Source: a virus
Taxonomy: Duplodnaviria > Caudoviricetes
Length of the DNA stretch: 55,864 nt
Virus record (IMG/VR): IMGVR_UViG_3300018063_000005
Coordinates: 1 to 55,864 of that record
Strand: one strand, 5' to 3'
Positions 14,014 to 44,788 of this stretch are shown piece after piece. A model generated the notes under the pieces. It saw nothing but the letters and a program-made list of their open reading frames with translations, had not been told where the DNA came from and made no database searches. Position 1 is the first letter of the stretch. The number at the start of each line of letters is the position of its first letter. The position numbers were made by a program, and so were the translations under genes.

Positions 14014-14849
14014 TCGAGGCTCCCTGTGACCGCGGCGAGCTCGTACATCGTGCCCTCCACCGCGGTCGGGGTGGACGGCATGCTGCCGGTGACCGGCGCG
14101 AGCTCGTAGACGTTCCCGGTCACGGGCTCGAGCTGCACCAGGTCGCCGAGGGGACCGGCCTGGAGAGGCGCGACGGCCGTCCCCAGCCCGACGGCAGCGC
14201 CGCCGGCGACGCCCAGCGCCTGCGCGGTGGGGGTCGCGGCCGCCGGATCGAGCGAGGCGGCGGGAACGCCGAGGTCGTGCGCGATCGCGGGAGCCGATGC
14301 GGTCGGCAGCCCGGCGGCGACGCTGTCCGTGGTCCCGAGGGGGCGCGCTTGCGCGGGCGCGGTGGCAGGCCCGATCCCGACCCACGCCGAGGTCTGCACG
14401 CCGATCGCGGAGGCGCCGACGGGCGCTGCGGCCGGCTCGAGGCCGGGCCCGAGCTCGCGCGCGGCGAGGCCGGCGATCGAGTGGGGACCAGCGAGCCACG
14501 AGAGCCCCGACATCGGCAGCCGCGTGAGGAGCGAGGTGACCGCGATGATCTCGCCGACGTCCGCGCTCGCGGCGGGCGAGAGCGCTGCGCCGGAGAGGCC
14601 CGCGGTCGCACCGCCCGCGCCGCTCGCGCCACCCGCGGCAGCCGGCATCGCGACGCCCACCCCGATGCGCGCGCCGCCGGCGCCGCCCAGCGCTCCCGGG
14701 ACGACCGGCGCGGCCGCGACCGGGAGCTCGACGGCGTCGAGAAGCAGCTCCACACCGGTCAGCCGAACCGCTCCGCCGGAGACGGGCCCGATCGTCAGGA
14801 CCCCCGTCCCCGCGGGCAGCGTCAGCGGCTGATCGATGCGGGTGCTCAT
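14010..14849 (-). CDS. Ala/Gly/Pro-rich putative tail fibre-associated protein
   Basis: coupled overlaps at both ends; imperfect A-x-A-P-A repeats. Confidence 0.55.
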   Translation of the reverse strand: MSTRIDQPLTLPAGTGVLTIGPVSGGAVRLTGVELLLDAVELPVAAAPVVPGALGGAGGARIGVGVAMPAAAGGASGAGGATAGLSGAALSPAASADVGEIIAVTSLLTRLPMSGLSWLAGPHSIAGLAARELGPGLEPAAAPVGASAIGVQTSAWVGIGPATAPAQARPLGTTDSVAAGLPTASAPAIAHDLGVPAASLDPAAATPTAQALGVAGGAAVGLGTAVAPLQAGPLGDLVQLEPVTGNVYELAPVTGSMPSTPTAVEGTMYELAAVTGSLE

Positions 14850-16642
14850 CGGTCGTAGGCTCCCACGTCTGGGCCGCCGATGCGGGCCACCCCGGCATCG
14901 ATGGGCGACCAGGTGACGCTTCCGATCGCGGTCGGCGCGTAGCAGGGCGAGGCGGCCGTGCCGAGGACGGTGCAGGTGCTCGAGCTGGTGCCCGCGTTCA
15001 CGAGCGGCGAGCCCAGCGCGGGGGTGAAGTCGGTCGGCGCGCTCACGAAGGGCGACGAGGAGAGGACCACCCGGTTCGTGTCGTAGGTCGTTCCCCACGT
15101 GCTGTTGCAGGCGTTGTGCGACAGCACGGAGTAGGACCCGGCCGACTGCTGGTAGACGAAGCACAGGTCGCCCGTGCCAGCGTAGAAGACGGCGTTGTTC
15201 GTGGCGTTGTGGCCGGTCCCGGCGTGGTCGATCCCGAACGCGACCCCCCAGTTCGGCGGGCCGGGGAAGAAGATCGTGTTGTTCCGCACCGTCACGCCCG
15301 CGCCGTCCTCGTCGCCGCCGCCTCCGCCACCGTCGCGGTTGACGGAGATCCCTTCCTGGATAGAGCCGGTCGAGGTCTGCACGACCAGGTTGCCCTCGAC
15401 CAGGGAGTTCGGGGCGCTGTCCAGCGCGATGCCGCGGGAGTGCCCGAGGACCCGGTTCCTGCGAACGATCGAGCGGCGGAAATGCTCGGCCGTCGAGTAC
15501 CCGCCGCCCACCTGGATGCCCCACTGGTTGGGGAAGTCGCCCGGGTTGTCGCACTGGATCAGGTTGTTCGTGATCTCGAGGTCCTCATGCTCGCCATGAA
15601 CGACGATGGAGACCGTGCCGGTGCTCATGCCGACCGGGCACCCGTGGATCTCGTTGTTGCGCACCTTCATCCGCAGCGACGCGCCGCCCAGGTAGACCGG
15701 GTGGTCGAACACGCCGGTGCCGCCGCCAGCGGATGACGCGAAGAAGTTGTCCTCGACCAAGCAGTCATCGCAGCCGCCGAGCACACCCATACTCAGGTTT
15801 GCGAATTGCGATTGACGAACCGTGACGCGCGCGCCGGAGGGCTCGGAGAAATAGATCCCCATGTCGCTGTCGCGGAAATAGACGTTGCAAATGTCGATGT
15901 CCGCGGAGCCGATCTCCACGTACGCCGCGCCCTGACCGGTGAAGCTATCGGCCATCTGGAGGTTCAGGTAGCGGAACCCCGAGGAAGGGTGATTGTTCGG
16001 GAGGTACACCAGGCGCCCGCCGCTGATGATCGGGCGCTTGGTCTGGTCGGTGGCCCACTCCGGGTGAGCCGCCGGCGTGTAGTCGCGGACGTCGCACGTG
16101 CTGCTCGCCGAGCATGAGGTGTTCTCGGTGTTGTTCCCGTCCCCGGCGTGCGACCCGCCGCGGCAGAGCGCGACCGTCGAGCCCGCGACCATCGTCGTCG
16201 CTCGGCTCTTCCACCCCGTGCGTCGTGGCGCGCTCGAGTTCGTGCCCGGGTTCGCGTCGTTGCCGACGACGCACGCCGGGTCGGCTCCGGTGCCGCAGTC
16301 GCAGTAGTAGTACGTCGTCCCCGTCGCGCGCATCGACTCGCTCGCGCAGAGCCCTGCGGCCGCCTGGATCGTGTACGTCGCGCAGACGACAGAGCTCGGC
16401 TGGAAACCGGTGCGGAACGCTCTGACGCAGACGGTGCTCGTCGAGCTCACCGGGATCGCCCCCGCGTAGCGCTGCGCGCCGACGCGCCGCGGGGTCGCTC
16501 CGGTCGTCGTGACGTAGAGCGTCGACCCCGGGAAGCGGCTCGAGGCGGTCACGCTCTGCGCGGAGGAGTAGGTCCCGGCGGCGGGCAACAGCGCCGGGGC
16601 GGCAACGCGCGCGGCGAGCAGGAGGGCGACGAGCAAGGTCAT
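14846..16642 (-). CDS. Fn3-associated (CHB_HEX_C-like) plus right-handed beta-helix protein, candidate depolymerase/adhesin
   Basis: PAAGTYSSAQSVT..TLYVTTTGATP domain; repeated VEDNFF/VRNNEI/ITNNLI/VEGNLV strands; C-terminal GSPLVNAG...PDVGAYD; short hydrophobic N-terminus; many Cys. Confidence 0.8.
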   Translation of the reverse strand: MTLLVALLLAARVAAPALLPAAGTYSSAQSVTASSRFPGSTLYVTTTGATPRRVGAQRYAGAIPVSSTSTVCVRAFRTGFQPSSVVCATYTIQAAAGLCASESMRATGTTYYYCDCGTGADPACVVGNDANPGTNSSAPRRTGWKSRATTMVAGSTVALCRGGSHAGDGNNTENTSCSASSTCDVRDYTPAAHPEWATDQTKRPIISGGRLVYLPNNHPSSGFRYLNLQMADSFTGQGAAYVEIGSADIDICNVYFRDSDMGIYFSEPSGARVTVRQSQFANLSMGVLGGCDDCLVEDNFFASSAGGGTGVFDHPVYLGGASLRMKVRNNEIHGCPVGMSTGTVSIVVHGEHEDLEITNNLIQCDNPGDFPNQWGIQVGGGYSTAEHFRRSIVRRNRVLGHSRGIALDSAPNSLVEGNLVVQTSTGSIQEGISVNRDGGGGGGDEDGAGVTVRNNTIFFPGPPNWGVAFGIDHAGTGHNATNNAVFYAGTGDLCFVYQQSAGSYSVLSHNACNSTWGTTYDTNRVVLSSSPFVSAPTDFTPALGSPLVNAGTSSSTCTVLGTAASPCYAPTAIGSVTWSPIDAGVARIGGPDVGAYDR

Positions 16643-18780
16643 GGGACGACCGGGAGCCCGAACTGCCCGACGCCCGGGGAGGTGTCAGCGTCGATCGCCT
16701 TGGCGTACACGCGGATCGCCTCGGTGATGGCGCCGAGCCCCGGAGGCAGCGCGTCCGCGTCCGCGGCGAGGACGTGCTGTGGAACGGTCCCAACCACGGG
16801 AGGGACGTCGCTGGTTGAGAACACGACGCCGAGACGGCCGGCGCCGCCGTCAGGCGTGCACACGGTCACCCGCGTTCGGTTCTCGAGCGGGGCCGGATCC
16901 AGGCGGCGGTACTCCGTCGTGACGCAGGCCACCGTGGTCGGTGCGCTCGCGGTGCTAGCAGGCATCGGGTCCTCCTCCTCCTCGTCGAGATCGCCCCACC
17001 ACTGGATCGTCCCCACCTGCACGCCCTCGAACAGCAGCGGCGCGCTGCCGCCGTTCCGGGAAGCCGCATCGGCGATGAGGCGGAACGAGCCGCCGGCGGC
17101 ATCCAGGGCCCAAGCGGCAGGCAGGTCCGCGTCAACCAGCGGACCGGGAGCGGGGACTCCGACCACGGCCATGGATGCGACGACGACGTCGGAGTACGTC
17201 TCCTCGGCCGAGACGGCGCCGGCGTGAACGACGACCTTCACTTGCTGTGGCGGGCCGCCTGACGAGGCGGTCGTAGCGATCCTCGCGGGCGGGCCGCGGT
17301 AGATGAGCGACTCCCCGACCCAGAGCTCGACCGCATCCACCTCGTCCCCGCTTGCGTAGCCCGTGAGGTCGATCGAGATCGGGCCGTCGAGCGTGGTCGT
17401 CGCGACGCCACCGGAGACAGAGATCAGCGACCACGGCCCCTCGGTGATCGGGAGCCACGCGCTCGTCGGCTCGTCCCAGACGCTCGGCAACGATGCGTAG
17501 GGGGGCGCCTTCCAGAACCCCGCGCACGGGAACACGGTCTGCCCGGCTCTCGCCGGGAAGCGACTCGCCAGGACCGCCGGGGAGAGTGTCGCCAGTGCTT
17601 TCGTGACGGCCTTTGCCGCGTTCACCATCCCGGCGTTTGGGAACCGCGCCGCGAACGTCGGATCGAACGATTCGTCCGCGGTGTCGAGAAGGAGCGCTCG
17701 CACCTGCGCGTTGGTCAGGGCCGGATTGACGGAGAGCACCAGCGACGCCACCGCCGCGGTGATAGGGGACGAGAACGACGTGCCCGTGGCGTAGTGGTAG
17801 ACCGGCTCGTTGAGGGGCCCGAGCGAGGGCGCGAGGCAGTAGGTCCCCGGGGCGCAGAGTTCGACCAAGGGACCGTAGTTAGAGGCGGGGCGCGGGGAGT
17901 CGTTGTGCTGTGTGTTGCCCACCGTGACCTGGGTCGCCTCACCGCTCTCCTGCAGGAAGAACCTGGGGTTGGTCGCGGTGTCCAGGACCACCCCGTTGTT
18001 TCCGGCAGCCAGGAAGACGAGTGCCCCGTGGTCCCATGCGTACTGGAGGGCGGCCTCCGTGTCGGTGTGGGGCCCGGGGTTGTTGTCCGCGAACGCGAGG
18101 CTGGCGTTGATCACCCGTGCGCCCGCGTCGGTCGCCCAGACGAACGCTTCGAGGGCGTCGACGAGGTTATCGCCGACCTCACCGCCGGTCCCGTCGTCCG
18201 GCGCGTACTCGGACACCATCACCACCGGGCAACCAGGCGCGACGCCCGCGACGCCGATGCCGTTGTTCCGCCGGCCCGCCATGTACGACTGAACCCACAG
18301 TCCGTGGGAGTATTTGAGGTTCGTCCCAGGGAACACGTACTGGTCGGGGTTCTGCGGGTCGGGGAGATCCTGGCCCGTGCTGTAGCCATTCCCCGCGGCG
18401 ATCGGGTCGACGTCCGGGTGCGCGTCGTACCCGCAGTCGATGACCGCCTGTTTGATCTCGGGCGATCCCGTAGTGATCTTGTGGGCCTGGAACGCGCCGA
18501 CGCGCTTGAGATGCCAGCACTCGTCGAGAAGCGCGTCGTTCGACGCAACGAGGTGCTCCGCCGACCTCTCCAGTCGCACGTTCCGATAGGCGTGCTCGAT
18601 CTCGGGGTGAGCGTTCGCGGCGGCCAGGACGGCGTCCGCCCGATCGTCGGACGAAAGCGCCACGGCGATCCGGAGCTGCGGGATCACCTTGTCGGGGAGG
18701 CGCTCCGCCCCGCACGCCAAGAGGATCTCGGGCAGGCGCCCGGGCTCCCACGCCCGCAGCCTGACGACGATCCGCGTCAC
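16639..18780 (-). CDS. S8 subtilisin-family serine protease with prodomain and C-terminal beta domains
   Basis: triad AVIDCG / SHGLWV / GTSFSSP; AAGNN oxyanion motif; NNGIGVAGVAP. Confidence 0.92.
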   Translation of the reverse strand: MTRIVVRLRAWEPGRLPEILLACGAERLPDKVIPQLRIAVALSSDDRADAVLAAANAHPEIEHAYRNVRLERSAEHLVASNDALLDECWHLKRVGAFQAHKITTGSPEIKQAVIDCGYDAHPDVDPIAAGNGYSTGQDLPDPQNPDQYVFPGTNLKYSHGLWVQSYMAGRRNNGIGVAGVAPGCPVVMVSEYAPDDGTGGEVGDNLVDALEAFVWATDAGARVINASLAFADNNPGPHTDTEAALQYAWDHGALVFLAAGNNGVVLDTATNPRFFLQESGEATQVTVGNTQHNDSPRPASNYGPLVELCAPGTYCLAPSLGPLNEPVYHYATGTSFSSPITAAVASLVLSVNPALTNAQVRALLLDTADESFDPTFAARFPNAGMVNAAKAVTKALATLSPAVLASRFPARAGQTVFPCAGFWKAPPYASLPSVWDEPTSAWLPITEGPWSLISVSGGVATTTLDGPISIDLTGYASGDEVDAVELWVGESLIYRGPPARIATTASSGGPPQQVKVVVHAGAVSAEETYSDVVVASMAVVGVPAPGPLVDADLPAAWALDAAGGSFRLIADAASRNGGSAPLLFEGVQVGTIQWWGDLDEEEEDPMPASTASAPTTVACVTTEYRRLDPAPLENRTRVTVCTPDGGAGRLGVVFSTSDVPPVVGTVPQHVLAADADALPPGLGAITEAIRVYAKAIDADTSPGVGQFGLPVVP

Positions 18781-20078
18781 GCCGAGACCCCGTTGATCGT
18801 GACGTCATCGATCGTGACGACGTACTCGAGCAAGAGATCCTCTCCATCGACACCGTCCACCACAAAGATCGAGATCGCAACGGGACCCGCCGAGGCGCCG
18901 CCGGGCGGGTTTAGCGTGAGCGTGTGCTCGGCGCCGTCCACGATCAGATTCGCGCCGACGCCGGAGACCCCAGCGTTCGCGATAACCGAGATTCCGTCGC
19001 CGTAGGCGCCGCCGCCCGGCGTCGACGTGCCCGGGAAAACTTGTGTCGCCTTGTACTTGAAGGCGACCGAGGTGATCCCGGAGCGCAGCGAGGTGACCGT
19101 CTTCGACGCGCTGAGGCCCGAGGACGTGCCCGCCCCGGCCACTCGCAGGGAGTAAGCCCCTGCGATGGGCCCGACGGCAGAGCGCGCCAGCGCACCGCCC
19201 AGCGTCCAACCATCGAGCCCGGCCTCGAAGTCGGAGACGATCGAGGCTCCGCCGCCACCGCCCACCGCGCCGAGGCCTTGCGCCGCGACGGGCGAGCTCG
19301 CCGGACCCGCGCCAGACGCTGCCGCGCCGACCGCGCCCAGCACCCCGGGCACCACCGGCGCCGAGATCGGGCCCGCCTCTCCGCTCGCGCCCCCGGGAGG
19401 CGCGCCGATCGTGACCGCCGGCGCCTGCGCGGTCACCGGAGCTGCCGCAGGGCCGACCCCGCCCGCTGCCCCGCCGCTGCCGGTGAGGCCCGGGAGGATG
19501 ACCGGCGACGCCGCGGGGCCGACGCCCGCGCTCGCGCCGACCGGCGAGCCGCCCGAGAGGAGCTGCCACGCCGCGCCGTCCGAGTAGTAGAGCGCGCCCG
19601 CCACGATCGCGAGGTCCGCGGGGCCACCGCGCGTCCACGCGTCCGCGGTCGCCGGGTGCGACCCCTGCAGCGCGGCGAGCGAGCCGTACATGAGCGGGCG
19701 TGCGTACTCCCGCAGCCGCTCCATCCACAGCCGGTGATAGACCGAGCCGCCGCGGTAGTAGTCCACCGAGGGGTTCTGCCCGGCGTCGCTCGAGTGGAAC
19801 TCCAGCACCGGCAGCCACTCCGTCGCCCCGCCGATGATCGCGGTCCACACCCGGAACTGGCCCGCTGCGGGTGCGCCATCCACGCGCGTGCGCGGGGCTC
19901 CGCCGATCGTCACGACCATCGGCGTCGCCGGCTGCGTAGGGTCGGCTGGCGCCTCGGTCAGCGACGCGACGAACGCACCCGAGATCGCGTCCCCCTCGAT
20001 GCTGTCGAGCAGCTCGGGGACCTGCGTGCGGACGTAGACGGCCCGGTAGTCCACCGGGCGCGGGAGGCGTCGGGCCAT
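18777..20078 (-). CDS. putative tail fibre/appendage protein with Gly-Ala-Pro repeats and carbohydrate-binding-like C-terminus
   Basis: four G-x-A-x-G-x-G-P-x-x-x-P-V repeats; SDFEAGLDGWT start of C-terminal domain. Confidence 0.55.
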   Translation of the reverse strand: MARRLPRPVDYRAVYVRTQVPELLDSIEGDAISGAFVASLTEAPADPTQPATPMVVTIGGAPRTRVDGAPAAGQFRVWTAIIGGATEWLPVLEFHSSDAGQNPSVDYYRGGSVYHRLWMERLREYARPLMYGSLAALQGSHPATADAWTRGGPADLAIVAGALYYSDGAAWQLLSGGSPVGASAGVGPAASPVILPGLTGSGGAAGGVGPAAAPVTAQAPAVTIGAPPGGASGEAGPISAPVVPGVLGAVGAAASGAGPASSPVAAQGLGAVGGGGGASIVSDFEAGLDGWTLGGALARSAVGPIAGAYSLRVAGAGTSSGLSASKTVTSLRSGITSVAFKYKATQVFPGTSTPGGGAYGDGISVIANAGVSGVGANLIVDGAEHTLTLNPPGGASAGPVAISIFVVDGVDGEDLLLEYVVTIDDVTINGVSA

Positions 20079-20146: not shown

Positions 20147-20785
20147 TCAGACCTCGCGCTGCAGGTTCATGCGCACCACGGCGTAGACGAGCGCGAGCGC
20201 GACACCGAGGAGCAGCACCGAGGCCAGCATCGGCGCGCTCACAGGCAGCGGCCCGGCGGTGGTCATCGTCACGAGCCCCAGGCCGCTCGCGGGGATCGTC
20301 ACGTCGAACGAACCGCCGCTCGCCGTCTTCGTCGAGCCGAACGAGAACGAGGCCGCGACCACGTCAGTCCCCTCGAGCGTGCCGTTCGCGCCGAGGTCGA
20401 CCAGCGCCGCGCCGTCGGAGCTGAACGTCGCCGCCGGCCAGGAGACGTTGTCGAAGTCGCAGTAGGCGGTGCCCGAGCTCACCCCGGTCGTGCGGTTCGT
20501 GAGCGACGCGCCGCCGGTCGTGTAGCCGTTGCCGTTCGCGACCTCGTCCGACCCGATCGCCGAGTAGGTCGTGGTGCTCGCGCCGTACGTGCCCGTGTGG
20601 CCGCCGCGGATCAGCACCAGGCGGTACGTCCGGCCGGCGATGCAGATGGCGTCGATCGCCGCCTGCTTCGCGGTGTTGCTCACCGCGGTGGTGATGGCCG
20701 CCTGCGAGGCGACCGGGACGAGGAAGACCAGCGCCGCCACGAGGGCGAGGCAGGCCGAGAAGCTGCGGAGGATGCGGGGGGTCAT
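20147..20785 (-). CDS. virion-type beta protein with Sec signal peptide and C-terminal transmembrane anchor
   Basis: MTPRILRSFSACLALVAALVFLVPVASQA-AITTAVSN...EVANGNGYTTGGASL...DFDNVSW...FGSTKTASGGSF; C-terminal MLASVLLLGVALALVYAVVR. Confidence 0.7.
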   Translation of the reverse strand: MTPRILRSFSACLALVAALVFLVPVASQAAITTAVSNTAKQAAIDAICIAGRTYRLVLIRGGHTGTYGASTTTYSAIGSDEVANGNGYTTGGASLTNRTTGVSSGTAYCDFDNVSWPAATFSSDGAALVDLGANGTLEGTDVVAASFSFGSTKTASGGSFDVTIPASGLGLVTMTTAGPLPVSAPMLASVLLLGVALALVYAVVRMNLQREV

Positions 20786-20796
20786 GCGGGGCTCCT

Positions 20797-20979
20797 TCAC
20801 TTCGTGCGGGCGCCGAGCTGGCCGGCGACGGGGGTGGTGTGGATGCGCTCGATCTCGACGCTGACCGAGTCGCGGATGCCGCAGATCGACACGGCACCGA
20901 GCGCGACCGCCGCGATGATGCCGGCGGCGGAGAGCGCGAGCTTGCGCGGCTTCGTGATCGTGACCTTCACCTTCTCCAT
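20797..20979 (-). CDS. small single-pass membrane protein
   Basis: GAGGAGGAG RBS; basic N-terminus plus hydrophobic helix. Confidence 0.55.
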   Translation of the reverse strand: MEKVKVTITKPRKLALSAAGIIAAVALGAVSICGIRDSVSVEIERIHTTPVAGQLGARTK

Positions 20980-21014
20980 GTGCTCCTCCTCGGGGTTCAA
21001 GACTGCGAGTGCTG

Positions 21015-21473
21015 CTACATCGAGGTCCGTCCGACGGGAGTGGCGGGCGGCACGGGGGCCGGCGGGAGCGGCTCCGACGGTGCGTCGCGCACCACTTCGA
21101 GATCGTGGTCCTCGCTCTCCGCGACCAGGAGGCGGACGTCGTAGAGCTGGACGATGCAGCCCTCGCTTCCGGCACCAGGCCTGCGCCGCGAGTCCCCGTG
21201 CAGGAGGAAGCCGCTGCGCTCGAAGGTGTTGGTCCCCGGCTTCGGGATGAGCCGCATCACGAGCTCGCCCTTCGTCGGGTGGGTGAAGGCCGGGCCGATC
21301 ACGTAGAGCCCCACCGGGATCGGGCCGACGTGGCGGCGCTCCTGCTCGTCGGGATCGTTCTTTCCCTCGCCCGGCTCCGGCACGCCGTCGCCGTCGTCCC
21401 ACCCCGAGTAGCCGCGGCCGACGAGGACGCTGTCGCGGAGCAGCTCGCCGGTGCGCTGCCGGTACGTCCACAT
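21015..21473 (-). CDS. Tlde1/DUF2778 (L,D-transpeptidase fold) peptidoglycan enzyme, candidate endolysin
   Basis: GYSG...GPIPVGLY...RSGFLLHGD...SEGCIV with catalytic His/Cys. Confidence 0.85.
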   Translation of the reverse strand: MWTYRQRTGELLRDSVLVGRGYSGWDDGDGVPEPGEGKNDPDEQERRHVGPIPVGLYVIGPAFTHPTKGELVMRLIPKPGTNTFERSGFLLHGDSRRRPGAGSEGCIVQLYDVRLLVAESEDHDLEVVRDAPSEPLPPAPVPPATPVGRTSM

Positions 21474-31339: not shown

Positions 31340-31663
31340 CTACGGGCGCGGCAGGCGGCGCGGAGCCCGCTTGTGGCCGGGCACGAGCTCGAGGATCTCG
31401 GCGTGGTCGTTCACTGCGTCGCGGAGCTGCTCGACGGTCCGCTCGAGCTCGGCGCGGCCATCGATGGCTCGGAGCGTGAGCTTCCGGATGTCCTCGAGCT
31501 TCCGGTTCGTCTCGCCCTGACGGAGCGCGCTGGCGTTGTCCTCGCGCTTCTCGTGACGGTGCACGATGAGGGCGACGCCGATCGTCCCGAGGGCCACGAT
31601 GGTCAACGCGATCAGCGCGCCCACCGCCACGAGGAGAGCTGCGGGTACGACGGCTGCGTTCAT
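31340..31663 (-). CDS. membrane protein with coiled coil (lysis-cassette candidate)
   Basis: long N-terminal hydrophobic helix. Confidence 0.55.
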   Translation of the reverse strand: MNAAVVPAALLVAVGALIALTIVALGTIGVALIVHRHEKREDNASALRQGETNRKLEDIRKLTLRAIDGRAELERTVEQLRDAVNDHAEILELVPGHKRAPRRLPRP

Positions 31664-32058
31664 GGAGCCCTCGGTCGGATGATGCGGGCCTGCGGCACCG
31701 GGCGCGCGGGGAGCGGCCCCGAGATCCGGTCGAGGAGGATGGCGAAGACGCCCGCCTGCTCGTCGGCGACGCGCTCGAGCGCCTGCGTCTGGCGGCCGAT
31801 CGCCTCGGTCTGCTTGTCCATCGCCTGGACGATGGTCGCAACCTGCGCTCGATGTTGGTCCCGCTCGTCGTAGATGCTGGCTTTCGTGACGCCCCACATC
31901 TCGACGACGAGCCAGAGGACGAGGCTCGCTGCCGAGCCCGACGCCACGAGCCGGCGGGCCTTCTTGCGCGCGCCCTCATCCTGTGGGCGTTGCCCGTAGA
32001 GGATCGCCCCGAGGAGGCGCGCCAGCGACGCCCAGCCGCCAGTCGTCCGGGTCGTCAC
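31660..32058 (-). CDS. membrane protein with coiled coil (lysis-cassette candidate)
   Basis: hydrophobic AASLVLWLVVEMW segment; coupled overlaps. Confidence 0.5.
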   Translation of the reverse strand: MTTRTTGGWASLARLLGAILYGQRPQDEGARKKARRLVASGSAASLVLWLVVEMWGVTKASIYDERDQHRAQVATIVQAMDKQTEAIGRQTQALERVADEQAGVFAILLDRISGPLPARPVPQARIIRPRAP

Positions 32059-32288
32059 CGCTCGGGCTCCACCTCGACGACCGGCGGGCCCGCGATCCAC
32101 CAGCCCTTGAGAAGCCGGACCTTGACTCGCGTGAGCCGCCCGTCAGGAAGCCGGACCCACACCTCCACCTCAGCCTCCTTCGCCACCCGGTGCGGGATCG
32201 TGGGGTCCGGGATCGCCGCCCGCCTGAAGCAGCCGCTCGCGGGCGACAGCATCACCGAAGCGATGACCACGAGCACGATCTTCCGCAT
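32055..32288 (-). CDS. lipoprotein, o-spanin-like
   Basis: MRKIVLVVIASVMLSPASG-C lipobox; starts inside the upstream gene in another frame. Confidence 0.6.
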   Translation of the reverse strand: MRKIVLVVIASVMLSPASGCFRRAAIPDPTIPHRVAKEAEVEVWVRLPDGRLTRVKVRLLKGWWIAGPPVVEVEPER

Positions 32289-32388
32289 TGGGCTTCTCCT
32301 CCTCGGCAATCCTGCGCTCGGCGAGGACGTCGAGATACGCCCGCGTGCACCCGCGGGCGATAGCGTAGGCGAGGTTCTCGAGGGTCAC
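32170..32388 (-). CDS. small protein overlapping the lipoprotein gene (Rz-like arrangement)
   Basis: follows holin candidate; overlapped architecture. Confidence 0.45.
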   Translation of the reverse strand: MTLENLAYAIARGCTRAYLDVLAERRIAEEEKPNAEDRARGHRFGDAVARERLLQAGGDPGPHDPAPGGEGG

Positions 32389-32394
32389 GGCCAG

Positions 32395-32643
32395 TCAGCC
32401 CTGCGTCGGGGGAGCCTGAACGCGCGCGGCCGCCTCGGGCGTCTCGGGCACGGTGCCGCCGGTCGACTGCGCGCCCTTCGCGAAGATCATGCCCACGCCG
32501 GCCATGACGGAGGTGATGAGGACGCCGAAGTCCACGGTGGTGCTCGGGGTGCCGTCGAAGAACGCGCCGGCCGCGAGAGCGAGAGCCTGGACGATCATCA
32601 CGATGCCCAGGACGGTGAGGTTCTTCGAGGTTGCGAGCGTCAT
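32395..32643 (-). CDS. holin-like two-TM protein
   Basis: two hydrophobic helices, AAGGAG RBS. Confidence 0.65.
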   Translation of the reverse strand: MTLATSKNLTVLGIVMIVQALALAAGAFFDGTPSTTVDFGVLITSVMAGVGMIFAKGAQSTGGTVPETPEAAARVQAPPTQG

Positions 32644-32678: not shown

Positions 32679-33269
32679 TCACTCCTCGACGAGCTCGATG
32701 AAGGCGGCGAAGCTCGCGCCGCCCGTGGCGCCGGGGTCGCGGAGCGCGATCCCGTTCGCCGTTCCCGGCGGGACGCGGGGCGGCCGCGCGAAGCGGTGCG
32801 TGAAGTCGATGCAGATCGGCACGAAGGCCGCGAGCGCCGTGGGCACGTAGACGGGGAGGGCGGCGATCGTCGCCCCCTGCGTCCCGAGCGCAGTGGGCTT
32901 CGCCCGGATCACGCCCGAGAACGCGGCGCCGAGCCCCGCGTCCTCCCTCCCGGCCGCGGCGGTGGGCGCGCCCGCGGCCTCCGGCGTCACCGCGCCGGCC
33001 GTGCCCGCGGCGGTGGTCCGCTCGAGCAGGAGGACGCGCAGGCCGGCCGTGGTCTGGATCCCGGGCTGCGTCACGCACACGCGCAGGATGCGGACCCCCT
33101 TCTGCGCGCCGGCCTCGATGGCGATCGCGTGCGAGGCGGCCGTGTTCGCCTGCCCGGACACGGCCACGATGTAGGGCGTGCCGAGCTTGAGCGTGTCCAG
33201 GGGCTCGGCGAGGGCGGGCTGGGCGAGCGTGCACACCGCGGCGATCGCGGCGAGGAGGAAGCGGCGCAT
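32679..33269 (-). CDS. signal-peptide-bearing beta protein in the head module (decoration-like)
   Basis: MRRFLLAAIAAVCTLAQPALA-EP Sec signal; two genes after major capsid. Confidence 0.65.
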   Translation of the reverse strand: MRRFLLAAIAAVCTLAQPALAEPLDTLKLGTPYIVAVSGQANTAASHAIAIEAGAQKGVRILRVCVTQPGIQTTAGLRVLLLERTTAAGTAGAVTPEAAGAPTAAAGREDAGLGAAFSGVIRAKPTALGTQGATIAALPVYVPTALAAFVPICIDFTHRFARPPRVPPGTANGIALRDPGATGGASFAAFIELVEE

Positions 33270-36085: not shown

Positions 36086-36113
36086 CGAGAGGAGCCTCCC
36101 GCGCGAGGGGCTG

Positions 36114-37426: not shown

Positions 37427-37436
37427 GGGAGCTCCT

Positions 37437-37703: not shown

Positions 37704-37709
37704 GGGCTG

Positions 37710-39323: not shown

Positions 39324-39326
39324 CTC

Positions 39327-40694
39327 TCAGCGGATCCGCACGTACCGCGGGCCGGACAGACCGCGCTGCTCGACGAGGTTGATCACCAGGTAGCGCACGC
39401 AGTCACATGCATGATCCGTCGTGCCGTCTTTGATCGGAACATCCGAGACCGGCCGGCCCTGCCTCGCCTCGGGATACGCGTACGACTCCATCGATCGCAC
39501 GATGCCGCGCGGGCCCCACTCGTCCTCGGCGAGGTCCTTCGCGACGAAGAGCCGGGTCTCGTCGAGCGTGTTGAGCAGCATCCCGTCGACCAGGTCGACG
39601 CCGTTCGGGATGTGCGTGAGCTCGTCGTCCGTCGTGAAGTTGACGGGGCGGAGCCCGTGGTTCTCGAGCACGTGGACGTCGGAGATCCCGGCCGACGTCG
39701 TCGCGTTGCCGGCCGGGTCGCAGAACCACTGCGCGACCTTGATCTTCTTCTGCTCGAGGTCCTCGCGGACGTGGTCGGCGAGCTGCGCCGTCGAGACCTG
39801 CGAGAGGTGGTACTGGCGGAAGCACACCCACGAGTTGTCCAGCGCCCTCTTCCCGTTCGAGAGCTTCCAGCCGAAGGGGATCTCCTGCCACAGCGTGACG
39901 GCCGGGCGCCGGCGGCCGAAGTCGATCACGCCCACCGTCTGGAAGCGCGCCTCGTACTTCCACGCGATCCCGTGCACCGTGTCCATGTCGAACGTCGGGT
40001 AGACCGCGTTCTCCGAGGAGCCCCACTGCCCCTCGATCAGGCTCTTCGCGAGCCTCTTCGAGTAGGTGCGCTCGAGCGAGGCGATGTACCCGGGCGCGAG
40101 GTGCGGCGCGTTCTCCCGCGTCGACATGTGGAACGCGCGCCGGCTGCCCTCGGCCTTCTTCCCCGCGAACTCGTCGTGGAGCCAACCCCAGCTCGGCGTC
40201 GTCGTCAGGACGCCCTGCAGCCGCTTCGCGGCGGAGAAACGGAGGCGGCCGACGATGATCTGCCAGGCCTCCTTCGAGTAGAGGCGCGCCTCGTCGCCCC
40301 AGATCCACGAGAGGTTCGCGCCCTCGAGTGAGCCCGGGTTGCCGGCCGAGCCGAGGAAGACCCTCGACCCGTTCACGAGCAAGATGTTCGGCGCCTTCGC
40401 GCCTCGCCGGTCTTCTGCGACGAGCTGCCCCGGGCACGCGCCTACCCAAGGCCTGTCCTTATCCACGAACGCGGGCAGCGTCACGCGGTAGAGCAGGCCC
40501 CACGTCGGGGCGACGATCATCCCGTCCTGGCCCGCGTTCGCGGCCGCGAGGTCGAGGGCGATCTCGGCCCCGGTCGACGTCTTCCCCGAGCCGTACCCGC
40601 CAAGGAGCGCCACCCATTCGTCGCGCGCGTCCATTGCGCGCTGCTGGCTCGGCGTCGGGACGCGGTCGCTCGCCCTGACGATGACCCGGGCCAT
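39327..40694 (-). CDS. terL: terminase large subunit
   Basis: Walker A GGYGSGKT, Walker B WIWGDEA, TTTP, nuclease IDFG and DHACDCVRY. Confidence 0.95.
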   Translation of the reverse strand: MARVIVRASDRVPTPSQQRAMDARDEWVALLGGYGSGKTSTGAEIALDLAAANAGQDGMIVAPTWGLLYRVTLPAFVDKDRPWVGACPGQLVAEDRRGAKAPNILLVNGSRVFLGSAGNPGSLEGANLSWIWGDEARLYSKEAWQIIVGRLRFSAAKRLQGVLTTTPSWGWLHDEFAGKKAEGSRRAFHMSTRENAPHLAPGYIASLERTYSKRLAKSLIEGQWGSSENAVYPTFDMDTVHGIAWKYEARFQTVGVIDFGRRRPAVTLWQEIPFGWKLSNGKRALDNSWVCFRQYHLSQVSTAQLADHVREDLEQKKIKVAQWFCDPAGNATTSAGISDVHVLENHGLRPVNFTTDDELTHIPNGVDLVDGMLLNTLDETRLFVAKDLAEDEWGPRGIVRSMESYAYPEARQGRPVSDVPIKDGTTDHACDCVRYLVINLVEQRGLSGPRYVRIR

Positions 40695-40697
40695 CCG

Positions 40698-41186
40698 CTA
40701 CGCCTCCTTCTGCGGCGGCGCCGGCTGGGCGGGCATGGCGGTGAGCGCCGCGGGCGGCGGCACGTCGGGGTTGCGGTTCCGCTCGATGACGATGTCGACC
40801 GCGCCCGCGCCGGCGAGGTCGTCGGTGGGCATGTAGCCCGTGCCCTCGATGCGGTGGAGGAGCTCCTCGACGCGGAGCATGGCGCGGAAGTGCGGGCCGC
40901 CCTTCTGCACGTCCGCCCTGGTGTAGAGCCTCATCAACCGCCGGATCTGCCGCTCACGCGCGGCGGGCCGGTCGCGGTGTCGCTCCGCCTTCCACCGCTC
41001 GTAGACCTTGGCGATGTACTCCGCGGCCTGCGAGGGCGAGATGCCCCAGCGCTTGCCGCACGTCCGCTGGATCGAGCTCGACGGCTCACCCGACGCGATC
41101 CACTTCTCGACCTGGTCAAGCCGCTGCTCGAGCTTCACGCCGCGGGTCTTCGGCCTCTTGGCCCCGCCCTTGTTGCCGCCTGCCAC
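40698..41186 (-). CDS. terS: terminase small subunit
   Basis: HTH-like basic protein directly upstream of terL. Confidence 0.65.
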   Translation of the reverse strand: MAGGNKGGAKRPKTRGVKLEQRLDQVEKWIASGEPSSSIQRTCGKRWGISPSQAAEYIAKVYERWKAERHRDRPAARERQIRRLMRLYTRADVQKGGPHFRAMLRVEELLHRIEGTGYMPTDDLAGAGAVDIVIERNRNPDVPPPAALTAMPAQPAPPQKEA

Positions 41187-41411
41187 GATGCGCGCCTCTC
41201 CCGCACCGCGGCGCGCCGCCCAGGGCGCGGCCTACCGCGGAGCCTCCGGGGCCCGCGAGACGGCGCAGCGTGATGAGGGAGCCCCGAGGGCCGGAACGAG
41301 GAGCGGCCCGCCAACCCCAGGGAGCAGGTCAGCGGGCCGCGAGGAGGACGACGACCAGCGTGCCGGCTTCTTCGCACGAGCCGGTGCGCGGTGGCAACCG
41401 CATTGAGTTCG

Positions 41412-41462
41412 ATTGTCGCCGAAACCTTCTGGAAACAACCGTGCATTGCCCTGCGCAATGCA
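41412..41462 (-). promoter_or_regulatory. putative late promoter with upstream palindrome
   Basis: AT-richer intergenic; TGCATTGC-N5-GCAATGCA at 41442-41462; -10-like GACAAT at 41417-41412. Confidence 0.45.
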
Positions 41463-41478
41463 GGTAGGGAATGATGCG

Positions 41479-41793
41479 CTACGGCGCGCGGATCCGGTCT
41501 CGGCCGGTCTCGCCGCTCAGGAAGATCCTCGATCCGTTCGCGAGCGGGAAGACCCGTGCCGGCGCGCGCGGGACGGGCGGCAGCAGGTCCACGAGCTCGA
41601 ACGAACGGCGTCGCTCGAGGGAGACGCGGATCGCCTCGACGGTGAGCGCGAGCGCATTGTCGGGCTCGGCGACGAGCAGGCAGGGCGGTCGGCCGGCGTG
41701 CAGGAAGAGGAGCTCCACGACCTCGCCTCGCGGGCGGCGCGCCAGCACGGAGGAGGGCTCACCGCAGACGCGGCAGCAGAAAGGCGTGCTCAC
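41479..41793 (-). CDS. hypothetical protein
   Basis: GTGA coupling; CxxC near N-terminus. Confidence 0.55.
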   Translation of the reverse strand: MSTPFCCRVCGEPSSVLARRPRGEVVELLFLHAGRPPCLLVAEPDNALALTVEAIRVSLERRRSFELVDLLPPVPRAPARVFPLANGSRIFLSGETGRDRIRAP

Positions 41794-42032
41794 GTCGCGG
41801 ACCTCTTGCTCTCCGACGAGAAGAGCTGGAACTGCTGCTGGGTCTGCTCGCGCATCCGCTCGATGTACGCGAGCACGGAGCTCTCCGGGATCCGCCACCC
41901 CTGGTCTCGATACGCGCCCGCGAACGTCCCGTCCCGACACCTCTGGAGGACCCAGTCCCTGTGATGGGCGAGCCGCCGCGCGACGGTGCGCGCGCTCAGC
42001 ATCTGCGGGACCGCGATCGGTGCGCTGCTCAT
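41790..42032 (-). CDS. HTH_17 / excisionase-MerR-like DNA-binding protein
   Basis: MLSARTVARRL...WRIPESSVLAYI. Confidence 0.75.
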   Translation of the reverse strand: MSSAPIAVPQMLSARTVARRLAHHRDWVLQRCRDGTFAGAYRDQGWRIPESSVLAYIERMREQTQQQFQLFSSESKRSAT

Positions 42033-42553
42033 TCGAGGAAGCCTCCTTCGGCGAGCCGCTCCCGGATGACCCGGTGCGCTCGCGACATGCGCCGCTTCAT
42101 CTGGTCCAGCGAGTACCGACCGCCGGCCCCTTCCTGGATCCACGCGTACGCGCGGCCGCGGCCGTGGTGCTCGAACAGCCAGCGGGCCACGAGCTCGCCG
42201 GCGCCGGCGTCGCGCGCCTCTGCGTCCTGGGCCGCGAGCTTCATCGCCCACGCGATCGCCGCGAACGCCCTGCGCTTCGGATCGTCGGCGCCGCGGTTCG
42301 GCGTCCCGTCGCCGCCCTCGAGGCCGCGCGCGAGCGGCAGCGCTTTCGGGCTCGCCCACGCCTCACGCGTCTGGAAGTACCAGGCGAGCGCGTGGCTCTC
42401 GTGGCGGAAGATGCGGACGCCGCTCGCGCGCCGCTTCATCCTCTCGAGCACGGCGGCGAGCAGCTCCTCCGCGTCGGCCTTCCGCTCCACCTCGAGCTCG
42501 CACCATCCCGCGTGCGGGGTCTCGCCGCACGTGCAGGGCTTCGGGAGCGTCAT
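42029..42553 (-). CDS. putative late-gene regulator (Q / sigma region-4-like C-terminus)
   Basis: C-terminal YSLDQMKRRMSRAHRVIRERL helix; upstream of terminase. Confidence 0.5.
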   Translation of the reverse strand: MTLPKPCTCGETPHAGWCELEVERKADAEELLAAVLERMKRRASGVRIFRHESHALAWYFQTREAWASPKALPLARGLEGGDGTPNRGADDPKRRAFAAIAWAMKLAAQDAEARDAGAGELVARWLFEHHGRGRAYAWIQEGAGGRYSLDQMKRRMSRAHRVIRERLAEGGFLE

Positions 42554-43044
42554 GGTGCGGGGAGCGCCTCCCCGCGCTCGAGGGCCCCGTGGATCCGGAT
42601 GGCGAGCTCCACCGCCCTGCACACCCGGGCGTCCGTCGGGACGTCGCCGAGGAAGAACCGCGCGAACGCGGCCGCGATGCCGCTCTCCTCGAGCCGCCAG
42701 AGCGCGCGGTCGATGGGCAGGTAGAGCACCACCCCGTCCCCGGCCGCGTAGGCGGCGGCGTGCCCCTCCTCGATGGAGACCACCGGGCGGCGCCAGGCGG
42801 CCCAGGCCGCGACGTCGAGGCGGGTCCAGAGCTCGAACCGCTCGCCGGCGAGCGCGAGCGCCCAGAGGCCGTCCTCGATGCGGACGACGAGCCCGGGCGG
42901 CACTGGGCGGTCGGAGTAGACCCGGAGCTCGTAGGTGCTCGAGACGGCGGCGGGGGGCGGCTCCGGCGGGGTCAACGCGGCGCGCGCGCGGGTGCCCGCG
43001 ACGGCGAGGGCGCCCAGGACGAGCGCCAGGAGAACGGCAACCAC
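42550..43044 (-). CDS. exported hypothetical protein
   Basis: MVAVLLALVLGALAVAGTRARA signal-like N-terminus. Confidence 0.55.
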   Translation of the reverse strand: MVAVLLALVLGALAVAGTRARAALTPPEPPPAAVSSTYELRVYSDRPVPPGLVVRIEDGLWALALAGERFELWTRLDVAAWAAWRRPVVSIEEGHAAAYAAGDGVVLYLPIDRALWRLEESGIAAAFARFFLGDVPTDARVCRAVELAIRIHGALERGEALPAP

Positions 43045-43156
43045 GGGTGCTCCCGGCCCGGAGCGGCGCGCGCGCGGCCCCTCACGGCGCGCCCGACCAG
43101 AACCGAGTCGGGCCGGATGCTATCACCAGGAACCGGCCGGAACCGAATGGAAGTCC

Positions 43157-44788
43157 TCAGAGACCGACGCTGACGACGTACCGGGCAAGCCCGGCGGCGA
43201 GCTCCGGGGCGTCCGCAGAGAGCGCCTCGGCTTCCCGCATAGCGCAGTCGCGCTGGCCGGTCGCGACGTAGGCGACGCCCAGGTTAAACCGGCCCTCGGG
43301 TAGAAGCGCGCTCGCGCGGAGCACCGCGATGGTCTCGTGGAACCGGCCGAGCTGGTTGAGCGCGCCGCCCAGGTCGCCGCGGGCCGCCGCGTGCATCGGG
43401 TCCGCCATGAGCGCTCGGGAGAAGTGCCCGACGGCCTCTTCATGACGGCTCGAGCGGAAGCACCACCGCCCGAGCTCGTTGTGCGCCCCCGCGTGCCCGG
43501 GCGCCAGCCCGACCGCCTCGAGGAGGTACGCCTCGCCCCGGCCGTCGCCGGCGTCGAGCAGCCCCTTGCCGAGCCCGAAGCAGATCGAGGGGTCCGCGCC
43601 CTGCGTCTCGCGCGCTCGCGCGAACAGCGTGACCGTGTCGCGCCACGTCTCGACCTGGAGCGTCGTGAGGACGGCGCACGCGGCGACGGCGGCCGCGCCG
43701 ACGACGAGCTGCAGGCGCGCGGGAACCCGGCGCGCGAGCTCGGCGCCGCCCCAGACCACCGCGACGAGGAGCCCCAGGACGGCGACGTAGGCGTGCCGGT
43801 CCGCCACGGCCGCCCACTGGCCGGCCTGCGTGATCCCGAGCGTCGGGACGAGGGCCGCGAGGAACCACATCCACCCGGCCAGCGCGTAGGGCGCCCGCGC
43901 GCGTAAGCGGACGACCGCGACCGTCACGCCGGCGAGCCCTACAGCCGCGGCGATGGGCAACCAGAGGGGCAGGGCGAGGGGGTACGGGTAGAAGACGGCA
44001 AGCTCGAGCGGCCACGCGACGTGCAGGATCTGCCGCCAGGGCACGAGCGCGGCGTTGCCGAGCCGCAGCGCAAGGGCCGGCAGCTCGCCTCGCGGCAGCC
44101 CGCGCAGCGCCGCCATGATGACCGCGGCCACCCCGACGCTGAGCAGCGCGACCGGGATCTTCTCGAGGAGGAGCGCCCACGTCCACCGGCGCTGCAGCGG
44201 CCACACGTCGAGCGCGAGCAGCAACGCGGGGAGGGGGAGAAGGATCGGCTTCGCCGCGAGGGACACCGCGGCCGCGGCGAGCATGGCCGCGTACGCCCAG
44301 CGCGAGCGGGTCCGCGCGAACCGCAGGTACAGCCCGACCGCGAGCAACCCGAAGAACGCCGCGAGCACGTTCTTTCGCTCCACCGCCCAGGCGACCGACT
44401 CGACGTTGAGCGGATGGACGGCGAAGAGGAGCGCCACGAGCGCCGAGCGGCCGCGCGCGCCCGTCGCCGCCCGGAGCCCGAGGAACACGAGGAGCGCCGA
44501 CGCGACGTGCCACGCCAGGTTCTCGAGGTGGAACGCCACCGGGTCGAAGCCGAAGACCGCGTGCGTGACGGCGAGCGAGACGACGGTGATGGGCTGCCAG
44601 TAGACGCCGTCGCGCGAGAGCTCGAGCGCGCCCTCGAGCGTGCTGAGGCCGAGCGGCGCGCCGACGACGGCGTCCGCGACGACGTGCGCCTGGTCGTCGA
44701 AGTCGACGAACGCGTTGTGGCGCAGGGGAGCATAGGCCCCGAGCGCGAGCCCGGCGATGAGCAGGTAGATCCAGAGGTCCCTATGCAT
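43157..44788 (-). CDS. TMTC-like GT-C protein O-glycosyltransferase with C-terminal TPRs
   Basis: FVDFDD acidic loop, YWQP, FHLENLAWH, LFAVHPLNVESVAWAVERKNVL, ADRHAY, WRDTVTLF, many TM helices, TPR repeats. Confidence 0.9.
   Translation of the reverse strand: MHRDLWIYLLIAGLALGAYAPLRHNAFVDFDDQAHVVADAVVGAPLGLSTLEGALELSRDGVYWQPITVVSLAVTHAVFGFDPVAFHLENLAWHVASALLVFLGLRAATGARGRSALVALLFAVHPLNVESVAWAVERKNVLAAFFGLLAVGLYLRFARTRSRWAYAAMLAAAAVSLAAKPILLPLPALLLALDVWPLQRRWTWALLLEKIPVALLSVGVAAVIMAALRGLPRGELPALALRLGNAALVPWRQILHVAWPLELAVFYPYPLALPLWLPIAAAVGLAGVTVAVVRLRARAPYALAGWMWFLAALVPTLGITQAGQWAAVADRHAYVAVLGLLVAVVWGGAELARRVPARLQLVVGAAAVAACAVLTTLQVETWRDTVTLFARARETQGADPSICFGLGKGLLDAGDGRGEAYLLEAVGLAPGHAGAHNELGRWCFRSSRHEEAVGHFSRALMADPMHAAARGDLGGALNQLGRFHETIAVLRASALLPEGRFNLGVAYVATGQRDCAMREAEALSADAPELAAGLARYVVSVGL

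Follow-up and report, generated by a model that had tools for sequence, protein, structure and literature searches.

What do the exported proteins, the membrane glycosyltransferase and the subtilase of one tailed phage do, and do they act together? This question is raised by IMG/VR virus record IMGVR_UViG_3300018063_000005, which was analysed over its whole length (55,864 bp, with direct terminal repeats and a completeness estimate of 100%; hereafter the window). The initial annotation had noted signal-peptide-like sequences on four proteins that it placed in the late operon, a TMTC-like GT-C glycosyltransferase and an intact subtilisin, and had linked them into one extracytoplasmic system of virion maturation, with independent lysogenic-conversion genes as the fallback. 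Raw lists of open reading frames (ORFs) are unusable at the GC content of the window (72%), and therefore genes were called by GC at the third codon position (GC3), which gave a map of 84 genes. On this map, and judged by their N-termini, all six features were recovered, each on the minus strand:

32679..33269, minus strand: predicted Sec-exported jelly-roll protein (g32679), 196 aa, with a family-specific Cys65/Cys153 pair; from its family and an AlphaFold2 (AF2) model
20147..20785, minus strand: predicted exported, C-terminally membrane-anchored copy of a phage fibre/tail-accessory domain of about 140 aa (g20147); phrog_644, E 1.4e-11
43157..44788, minus strand: predicted GT-C/PMT-clan membrane glycosyltransferase with a C-terminal tetratricopeptide repeat (TPR) domain and TMTC-like architecture; from TPR matches and homologues
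42550..43044, minus strand: 164-aa protein (g42550) with a hydrophobic N-terminus (signal or anchor) and a Pro-rich linker; from sequence features
16639..18780, minus strand: 713-aa subtilase with an S8 domain at residues 112-377, an intact triad and an uncharacterised C-terminal region of about 330 aa
14846..16642, minus strand: predicted Sec-exported, Cys-rich right-handed beta-helix protein (g14846), 598 aa with 18 Cys and an N-terminal CHB_HEX_C_1 domain

The features are real, and we give somewhat better than an even chance to the reading that they belong to at least four independent envelope-acting modules and not to one virion-maturation pathway. Most likely, these independent modules serve lysogenic conversion, exclusion, lysis and matrix degradation, so that the fallback of independent genes fits better than the linked system. 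The export signals, family memberships, gene order and absence of co-occurrence were computed here; every biochemical role named below is one that we infer.

In the linked scheme, late proteins undergo oxidation after export, the GT-C enzyme glycosylates them, the S8 protease sets them free, and they then join the particles. All of its components are found in one genome, two or three of the proteins could plausibly be exported and oxidised, and by analogy with the TMTCs, as these are described in PMC7801869, the active-site loop and the TPRs of the GT-C protein would be expected on the periplasmic side. The link between the parts did not hold, however. The GT-C gene lies in a separate unit beside the xis-like and integrase genes, g20147 is membrane-anchored, g14846 comes from a cellular secreted family, and the S8 protein, proposed for the proteolytic release, has no signal peptide. 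No other glycosyltransferase, Dsb protein or peptidase able to tie the parts together was found among the 84 proteins. What survives of the scheme is that some late proteins are predicted to be exported and probably oxidised, given the Cys pair of g32679 and the conserved cysteines of g14846.

The expected co-occurrence of signal-bearing homologues with GT-C and S8 genes also fails in the few relatives available. The only substantial relative found, G001 (31.8 kb, completeness estimate 57%), has its gene order in common with the window from the small terminase gene through g21493 and carries unrelated genes after g21493. It retains a signal-bearing homologue of g32679 and has no homologue of anything in 21473-13672 (the S8, beta-helix and g20147 genes are absent) and no GT-C gene; its replication genes abut the homologue of g42029 where the window has the GT-C block and the integrase. 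GT-C homologues are present in five other IMG/VR contigs. One of these five has an S8 gene, a different one has a member of the g20147 family and none has the g32679 family, and the two that are at least 90% complete have none of the three. The same profiles recover their targets in the window genome, which served as the positive control. We regard the full scheme of oxidation, glycosylation, release and addition to particles as very improbable.

Export signals and folds of g32679 and g20147

Both proteins are encoded in the late operon, which extends on the minus strand from 41186, at the small terminase gene, down to 13672 and contains family matches to the large terminase, a P22-type coat protein and a tail-tube-like protein; two of its genes, one of 534 aa at the portal position and one of 611 aa at the tape-measure position, are without family match. 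The N-terminus of g32679 reads MRRFLLAAIAAVCTLAQPALA up to the predicted cleavage site and continues with EP, and a GAGAGG ribosome-binding site precedes the start. A Sec signal was taken to consist of a basic n-region, a hydrophobic core of 7-15 residues and a small-x-small cleavage motif, with conservation of these properties rather than of the exact residues. All three parts are present here (MRR, FLLAAIAAVCTLAQ, and PALA before E). The g32679 family comprises 27 members including the query, of which 17 have a signal-like N-terminus. Among 15 close relatives (58-72% identity) the signal sequence varies freely and the basic, hydrophobic and A-x-A architecture is retained, and such a combination of variable sequence and constant architecture is what selection on a signal peptide typically leaves. 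In the more distant members the N-termini are unrelated and not hydrophobic; one of these members, P0136, is a fragment without an N-terminus. The signal peptide that the initial annotation gave to this protein therefore stands and is, on sequence criteria, a genuine cleavable signal of the Sec type.

Two cysteines co-vary with the signal through the family. Cys65 and Cys153 are found in 16 of the 17 signal-bearing members and in none of the ten others; therefore, export and a probable disulfide appear to have been gained together. By this comparison, the family switches between a form that lacks both the signal and the Cys pair and a form that has both, and the joint gain cleanly marks an evolutionary move between compartments.

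The AF2 model of g32679, based on the family alignment (predicted local distance difference test, pLDDT, 81; predicted template-modelling score, pTM, 0.74), consists of an N-terminal helix and then a single jelly roll. Foldseek returned no match in the Protein Data Bank (PDB) at E <= 0.001. The top match in an exhaustive VIA search was a satellite-virus coat protein (Z 8.3), followed by a broad plateau at Z 5.5-7.7, which includes phage cement/turret proteins (7dou_4, Z 6.7; 7eel_H, 6.3; 3j4u_H, 5.6; 8qpg_TD, 7.1), XepA of PBSX (6i56_D, Z 7.1) and TNF/C1q domains. In the model the fold is a jelly roll, and nothing more specific is established. The cement/turret proteins (of BPP-1, Pam1, KHP40 and HFTV1) and XepA are, like g32679, single jelly rolls of similar size whose genes lie near the capsid gene or beside lysis genes. 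Unlike them, the g32679 subgroup has a cleavable signal peptide and the Cys pair, and the likeness is one of generic fold (Z 5.6-7.1). A role as secreted endolysin was considered and rejected, the fold being a jelly roll and no enzyme family matching. The search with the g32679 alignment found one viral record of 31.8 kb, one genome contig of 2.7 kb and three metagenome contigs of 1.4-1.7 kb.

The best start of g20147 is the ATG at 20785, with AAGGAG located 7 nt upstream. Its predicted signal (MTPRILRSFSACLALVAALVFLVPVASQA, followed by AITT) has the three parts of a Sec signal and is placed before a complete domain; the predicted cleavage site, between ASQA and AITT, coincides exactly with the N-terminus of the family, MAITTA, in the alignment. 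The start and the signal given in the initial annotation were thus borne out, and a strong C-terminal transmembrane (TM) segment, which it had missed, was identified at residues 191-209 counted from GTG (Kyte-Doolittle, KD, 2.65). An exhaustive HMMER search found 593 relatives at E <= 0.001, nearly all of them proteins of about 140 aa whose positions 2-140 are matched by query residues 35-178. According to these alignments, the family is normally the soluble core domain alone. A signal-like N-terminus was recognised by inspection in only 4 of the 150 listed representatives (P0265, P0296, P0347 and P0343), and none of these 150 has a C-terminal extension comparable to the TM anchor of g20147.

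The AF2 model of g20147 (pLDDT 79, above 90 across most of the core) also had no Foldseek match in the PDB at E <= 0.001. Small accessory components of tails, necks, baseplates or fibres of phages account for all of the top seven VIA matches (Z 8.8 to 6.3), which come from the Bxb1 tail tip, the KP1 baseplate, the Sf14 neck, the phi812 baseplate, GP4 (entry 8jou_a, titled 'Fiber I and fiber-tail-adaptor'), the HFTV1 tail and the 7-7-1 tail fibres; the eighth is an unrelated enzyme (Z 4.9). The 139-aa chain of 7-7-1 (9rkv_A) is probably the garland protein gp014, judging by its size and by the description of that protein in PMC12796354. The core of g20147 shares its fold with these small accessory proteins (8jou_a of GP4, 9rkv_A of 7-7-1 and 9d93_Ra of Bxb1; Z 6.3-8.8). 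They are soluble parts of the virion, whereas g20147 adds a signal peptide and a C-terminal membrane anchor. In the Roseobacter phage CRP-902, the tail-fibre gene is immediately preceded by that of a soluble homologue. A PEP-CTERM or VPLPA-CTERM sorting substrate was also considered for g20147 and was dropped, as no NCBIfam model matched.

Signals of this kind could be annotation artefacts that result from mis-called start codons in high-GC ORFs. High-GC DNA lengthens ORFs upstream by chance, and two of the hydrophobic N-termini in question, those of g14846 and g42550, have no basic n-region. On the other hand, the g32679 signal is kept across its family behind a ribosome-binding site. In g20147, which has its own AAGGAG site, all 34 codons ahead of the domain (34/34) have G or C at the third position and no usable start codon lies between the signal and the domain, while g42550 has no upstream start and the homologues of g14846 bear signals. 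As an explanation of the signals, an artefact is barely credible.

It is unusual that two phage-specific virion-type domains are fitted with export signals, and a keyword search of the literature on exported structural proteins of tailed phages, which was not exhaustive, returned no precedent. One way to explain this is that g32679, and possibly a cleaved form of g20147, are decoration or accessory proteins of the virion that take the Sec route for the sake of a disulfide and bind to particles at or after lysis, with the GT-C and S8 proteins uninvolved. This agrees with the location of g32679 after the capsid gene in both the window phage and G001, with the resemblance of its jelly roll to cement/turret proteins, with the existence of signal-less family members and a Cys pair that comes only with the signal peptide, and with the match of the g20147 core to fibre and tail accessory proteins. 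However, the fold matches are generic (Z <= 8.3), with equal scores for capsid proteins from unrelated viruses, g20147 has its strong membrane anchor, and the literature search gave no parallel. The identities between the window and G001 also speak against it, as g32679 is 70% identical and the major capsid protein (33871-34794) just 31% (portal-position protein 33%, tube 39%), which argues against a partner that co-evolves with the capsid. Judged by sequence identity, this difference between adjacent genes points to recent exchange of g32679 or to constraint from a conserved partner other than the capsid. We consider virion decoration rather unlikely. It is decidedly unlikely that g32679 and g20147 stand for virion-type proteins that have moved their folding outside the cytoplasm and that are added to particles, or act on them, in the periplasm or at lysis; if true, a tailed phage would have a maturation step after the cytoplasm, with hardening by disulfides and possibly with glycosylation. 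To our knowledge, the virion proteins of tailed phages are assumed to be cytoplasmic.

The reading that we favour places both proteins in the envelope. g32679 would be a Sec-exported, disulfide-bonded jelly roll that acts in the periplasm or envelope, its likeliest role being exclusion or receptor masking. g20147 would be a fibre-accessory virion domain that has been re-targeted to the periplasm and anchored in the inner membrane, where incoming tails may meet it as a decoy or a sensor, or where it may assist lysis. Whether the proteins prove to be virion parts turned into exclusion decoys or lysis accessories, or the first post-cytoplasmic virion components of a tailed phage, the finding would be new.

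A further signal-bearing protein of 280 aa, which starts with MKRLLVAALAALSLLAPSLGSAG, is encoded in the head module of G001 (20586-21428 of the record, 4586-5428 of L006, minus strand). It matches phrog_28344 (E 1.3e-16), with a weak match to a tail-sheath beta-sandwich, and has no homologue in the window. It is a third case of a signal-bearing phage protein beside g32679 and g20147.

The GT-C block beside the integrase

The GT-C gene and g42550 belong to a block (g45049-g41479) that follows directly after the xis-like and integrase genes, lies outside the late operon and ends at a hairpin before the small terminase gene. The elements that delimit it are the following:

46943-47179, minus strand: xis-like HTH_17 gene, just upstream of the integrase; HTH_17 E 4.1e-7
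45516..46907, minus strand: tyrosine integrase; Phage_integrase E 7.9e-20, phrog_1 E 1e-50
45373..45401, minus strand: sigma-70-like promoter before the GT-C operon; TTGACC, spacer of 17 nt, TATTTT
44794..45321, minus strand: first two genes of the operon, both small: g45049 (90 aa) and g44794 (84 aa, with a weak helix-turn-helix, HTH); from the gene map
41442..41462, minus strand: terminator-like hairpin between g41479 and the small terminase gene; 4 such sites against 3.9 expected, not enriched

The promoter-like sequence is the only sigma-70-like site in the 17.5 kb of 30000-47500, where one was found and 0.2 were expected. An AGGAG ribosome-binding site precedes g45049, and the HVO_A0261_N and HTH_11 matches of the g45049/g44794 pair are below the cut-offs.

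The GT-C protein has at least six strong TM segments, which are followed by the TPRs. Two Asp residues of the first loop (D31 and D32) do not vary across 29 aligned sequences, and a block of the form LFAVHP...E.V.W is conserved; a polytopic N-terminal domain and a conserved acidic motif in the first loop are the marks by which the protein is assigned to the GT-C superfamily. Residues 1-400 have 223 homologues among the 8000 candidates scored, the best of which is 55% identical, and some are named protein O-mannosyl-transferase by JGI. The homologues are overwhelmingly cellular, and named ones come from Terriglobales, Planctomycetes, Nitrospirae and Anaeromyxobacteraceae; among the 50,697 records of cultured phages no homologue was found. 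PMT_2 was detected in 11 of the 29 aligned homologues (best E 3.2e-8). The window protein itself matches no GT-C model of Pfam, and searches of Pfam and of PDB sequences match its TPRs only.

In human TMTCs, according to the description in PMC7801869, a DD motif is located in the first loop, a further motif in TM3 and the DUF1736 loop between TM7 and TM8. D31/D32 and the LFAVHP block of the window protein correspond to the DD and TM3 motifs of that description. The eukaryotic TMTC1-4, as presented there, share with it the N-terminal GT-C domain, the DD motif, the LFAVHP-type motif and the C-terminal TPRs; unlike them, the window protein is bacterial or phage-borne and DUF1736 is not detected in it, even at E up to 10. 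DUF1736 is also not among the 25 commonest of the 40 Pfam families matched by the 29 homologues. The earlier label of a TMTC-like GT-C enzyme therefore holds for the architecture (DD, LFAVHP, C-terminal TPRs) and not for family membership, and from its sequence the protein is filed as a member of the GT-C/PMT clan with TMTC-like architecture, not as a TMTC.

The position of the block invites comparison with serotype conversion. P22 and Shigella phages carry serotype-conversion genes (GtrA, GtrB, GtrC) next to int and attP. Like the Gtr cassettes of P22 and Shigella flexneri phages, the GT-C block encodes a polytopic membrane glycosyltransferase of the type that uses a lipid-linked sugar, and it likewise lies beside xis-int and outside the late operon. 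In a Gtr cassette, however, a GtrA flippase and a GtrB bactoprenol glucosyltransferase adjoin the transferase, whereas neither GtrA, GtrB nor any other glycosyltransferase was found with Pfam in the 84 called proteins. The window protein also differs in its TPRs and in its PMT/TMTC-like branch, which points to a protein substrate and not to O-antigen.

The second protein of interest in this block, g42550, indeed has a hydrophobic N-terminus, as the initial annotation had stated, and no upstream start codon is available; its gene is not part of the late operon in which it had been placed. The hydrophobic core is not preceded by Lys or Arg, and the protein has no homologues and no Pfam, NCBIfam or PHROG match.

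A lysogenic-conversion cassette is the most likely reading of this arrangement, in which xis and int are followed by an operon that has its own promoter-like site and encodes GT-C and a small membrane protein. As its donor the GT-C enzyme would take a sugar carried on host polyprenyl phosphate, at the outer face of the inner membrane, its TPR domain would select an envelope protein or glycan, and the altered surface would change phage adsorption. By analogy, the block most likely modifies a host envelope protein or glycan, and a GT-C gene in a conversion position suggests that such glycosylation may represent a so far unexplored form of lysogenic conversion in environmental bacteria.

In the IMG/VR contig L012 (6281-14151), the neighbours on both sides of a GT-C relative (7980-9443) are several small signal-bearing proteins and a lysis cassette of the lysozyme/lipoprotein type. 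None of these signal-bearing proteins is homologous to the exported proteins of the window.

The distal block and the lysis-type genes

The remaining candidates of the linked scheme, the subtilase and g14846, are encoded at the distal end of the late operon, and lysis-type genes are located at two other sites within it:

18777..20078, minus strand: 433-aa protein g18777, possible fibre with a C-terminal carbohydrate-binding-like jelly roll; lead only
13672..14849, minus strand: last two genes of the distal block (279 aa and 113 aa), uncharacterised; phrog_1084 E 7.7e-5 for the 113-aa protein
21015..21473, minus strand: Tlde1-like L,D-peptidase, candidate endolysin; PF10908 30.7 bits against a cut-off of 30.1, phrog_24118 E 5.7e-30
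20797..21000, minus strand: 67-aa protein with a single TM segment, holin-like by topology only
31340..32643, minus strand: four small membrane-protein genes, for a holin-like protein with 2 TM segments, a lipobox lipoprotein (MRKIVLVVIASVMLSPASGC) and two TM proteins

The distal group of five genes (20078-13672) is translationally coupled, with overlaps of 4 nt, and looks like a block for host recognition and enzymes. g18777 has no family matches, and the lead to a fibre comes from structural matches in the Atlas with TM scores below 0.5.

The intact subtilisin of the initial annotation was confirmed. The Peptidase_S8 score is 104.2 bits against a cut-off of 21.8, and the catalytic Asp, His, oxyanion Asn and Ser (IDCG, SHG, AAGNNG and GTSFSSP) align with those of 1dbi_A (AK.1 protease) and thermitase-type enzymes; with a Pfam score above the cut-off and all catalytic residues present, the protein is classified as a subtilase. 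Its N-terminus, VTRIVVRLRAWEPGR, has no hydrophobic core and no signal peptide, unlike that of a secreted pre-pro-subtilisin, and the ORF can be extended upstream by at most 8 codons. Without a signal peptide the protease would be unable to act in the periplasm before lysis. A propeptide of the I9 type had been suspected from the sequence pattern and was rejected, with no Pfam match. S8 genes are rare in cultured phages (3 records), and the one that was inspected lies between lysis genes and the integrase and not among tail genes; in IMG/VR no relatives of the window protein were found.

In g14846, the hydrophobic N-terminus is directly followed by the CHB_HEX_C_1 domain and then by the right-handed beta-helix. 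The hydrophobic N-terminus noted earlier is real, and the family speaks for export, as 45 of 62 homologues are signal-like at this end, 30 of the 45 also having a lipobox-like motif; the query has no Lys or Arg before its hydrophobic core and thus lacks a basic n-region. About 12 of the 62 homologues examined match the CHB_HEX_C domain only. The homologues are up to 53% identical, Cys-rich and located on contigs of up to 380 kb, and 10 of the 18 cysteines of g14846 are conserved in at least 15 of 19 aligned members. By these features the family is a cellular, exported (secreted or lipoprotein) and disulfide-rich one and not a virion family. Two paralogues of the beta-helix family (P0154 and P0158) share one contig of 86.5 kb, which is consistent with a cellular multigene family. 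The distal block would thus include a protein that resembles a fibre, the subtilase, which would remain in the cytoplasm until the cell lyses, and g14846, a Sec-exported and Cys-rich beta-helix whose family is cellular and secreted. The subtilase and g14846 are probably released to degrade host matrix or surface layers.

Upstream of this block, the Tlde1-like L,D-peptidase, the small TM protein and g20147 would occupy the lysis-cassette position. The peptidase has an HG...SEGC motif and sits where G001 has its lysis cassette; as a member of a family of type VI effectors, it would be an unusual type of endolysin. The 67-aa protein has no family match. The four genes at 31340-32643, two of which have weak matches to Rz-like spanin PHROGs (E 0.01 and 0.037), are inserted between g32679 and g30400 relative to G001 and are absent there at that position. 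Lying amid the structural operon, they probably encode a holin and a two-component spanin.

These genes bear on whether the exported proteins are themselves lysis parts, g20147 as a spanin-like or antiholin-like protein that spans the periplasm and g32679 as an exported lysis accessory similar to XepA. g20147 is in the lysis-cassette position, and at the same position the G001 cassette has a 108-aa protein with a signal peptide and a C-terminal TM segment, which keeps a lysis role for g20147 open. Holin-like and spanin-like genes directly follow g32679. A unimolecular spanin such as gp11 of phage T1 has an N-terminal export signal and a C-terminal TM segment, and g20147 resembles it in both respects and in its lysis-cassette position; unlike gp11, it has no lipobox, the defining trait of unimolecular spanins (its sole early Cys precedes the hydrophobic core), and its periplasmic part is a folded virion-type domain. 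XepA, the exported lytic-cassette protein of PBSX as described in PMC6834076, is among the jelly-roll matches of g32679 (6i56_D), but its score is no better than that of many unrelated jelly rolls. Moreover, a two-component spanin pair is probably present already, and the g32679 homologue in G001 is not beside lysis genes. A general lysis role for the exported proteins is thus doubtful, and independent envelope modules remain the reading that we prefer.

Lifestyle, host and the weight of the overall reading

Together with the integrase and the xis-like gene, a third gene informs the lifestyle:

6942-7340, minus strand: CI-like repressor; from family matches

With these three genes and its direct terminal repeats, the window is the genome of a complete temperate phage. 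Its large terminase protein (TerL) is about 26% identical at best to those of cultured phages among the matches listed, by which measure the phage is without a close cultured relative, and the capsid protein has only matches of 28-29% identity in IMG/VR. The host is probably a diderm, high-GC bacterium, because of the spanin-like genes, the short signals and the taxa of the GT-C homologues; the probable spanins at 31340-32643 also suggest a diderm host.

Envelope-targeted products among structural genes have known counterparts in other temperate phages. Lambda lom and bor, and cor of phi80 and N15, are morons or exclusion proteins located inside late operons. HK97 gp15, as characterised in PMC3594210, is encoded in the tail operon, inserts in the inner membrane and acts as an exclusion protein, and it is a precedent for envelope proteins encoded within late operons. 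g32679 and g20147 are likewise predicted to be envelope-targeted and lie among structural genes. Unlike these morons, they are homologous to virion-type domains and not to host proteins, g32679 is syntenic in G001, and the exclusion role is a proposed one.

Several points weigh against independent envelope modules. First, g32679 and g20147 have virion-type folds and sit in structural-gene positions: g32679 follows the capsid gene in both phages, and g20147 is directly upstream of g18777, the possible fibre, which mirrors the order in CRP-902. Second, the two genes have no obvious promoter or terminator of their own and therefore are not classical morons, and the terminator-like site that would close the GT-C block is without statistical support. 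Third, with one substantial relative, of an estimated completeness of 57%, the co-occurrence test is thin. The sole GTDB match of the g32679 family is the 2.7-kb contig, which is binned to a metagenome-assembled genome (MAG) of Actinomycetes and would favour a monoderm host. Finally, the exclusion and conversion activities of these modules are predicted ones.

A GC-rich hairpin and then a T-arm-like hairpin (GCAGGTTTCGAACCTGC) are located at 45569-45669 (minus strand), within the 3' end of the integrase ORF, and this region may hold the attP core, in which case the GT-C operon and int would be at opposite ends of the prophage. A tRNA-derived core at 45569-45621 was considered and rejected, since there is a T-arm-like hairpin only and no significant tRNA match. 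The phage, or a near-identical one, is present in two metagenome runs from freshwater sediment (X1 and X2, from two studies), and the record itself may derive from one of these runs. The contigs of these runs show presence only, short joints (20-23 letters on the shorter side) being taken as noise; those of run X1 break precisely at 45579-45621.

Directly downstream of the CI-like repressor gene and on the same strand, a gene at 6491-6796 (minus strand) encodes a lipoprotein-like protein of 101 aa with five Cys (MNRLALLLVGVLAGTGVSCGG). It is a candidate exclusion or conversion gene expressed from the prophage.

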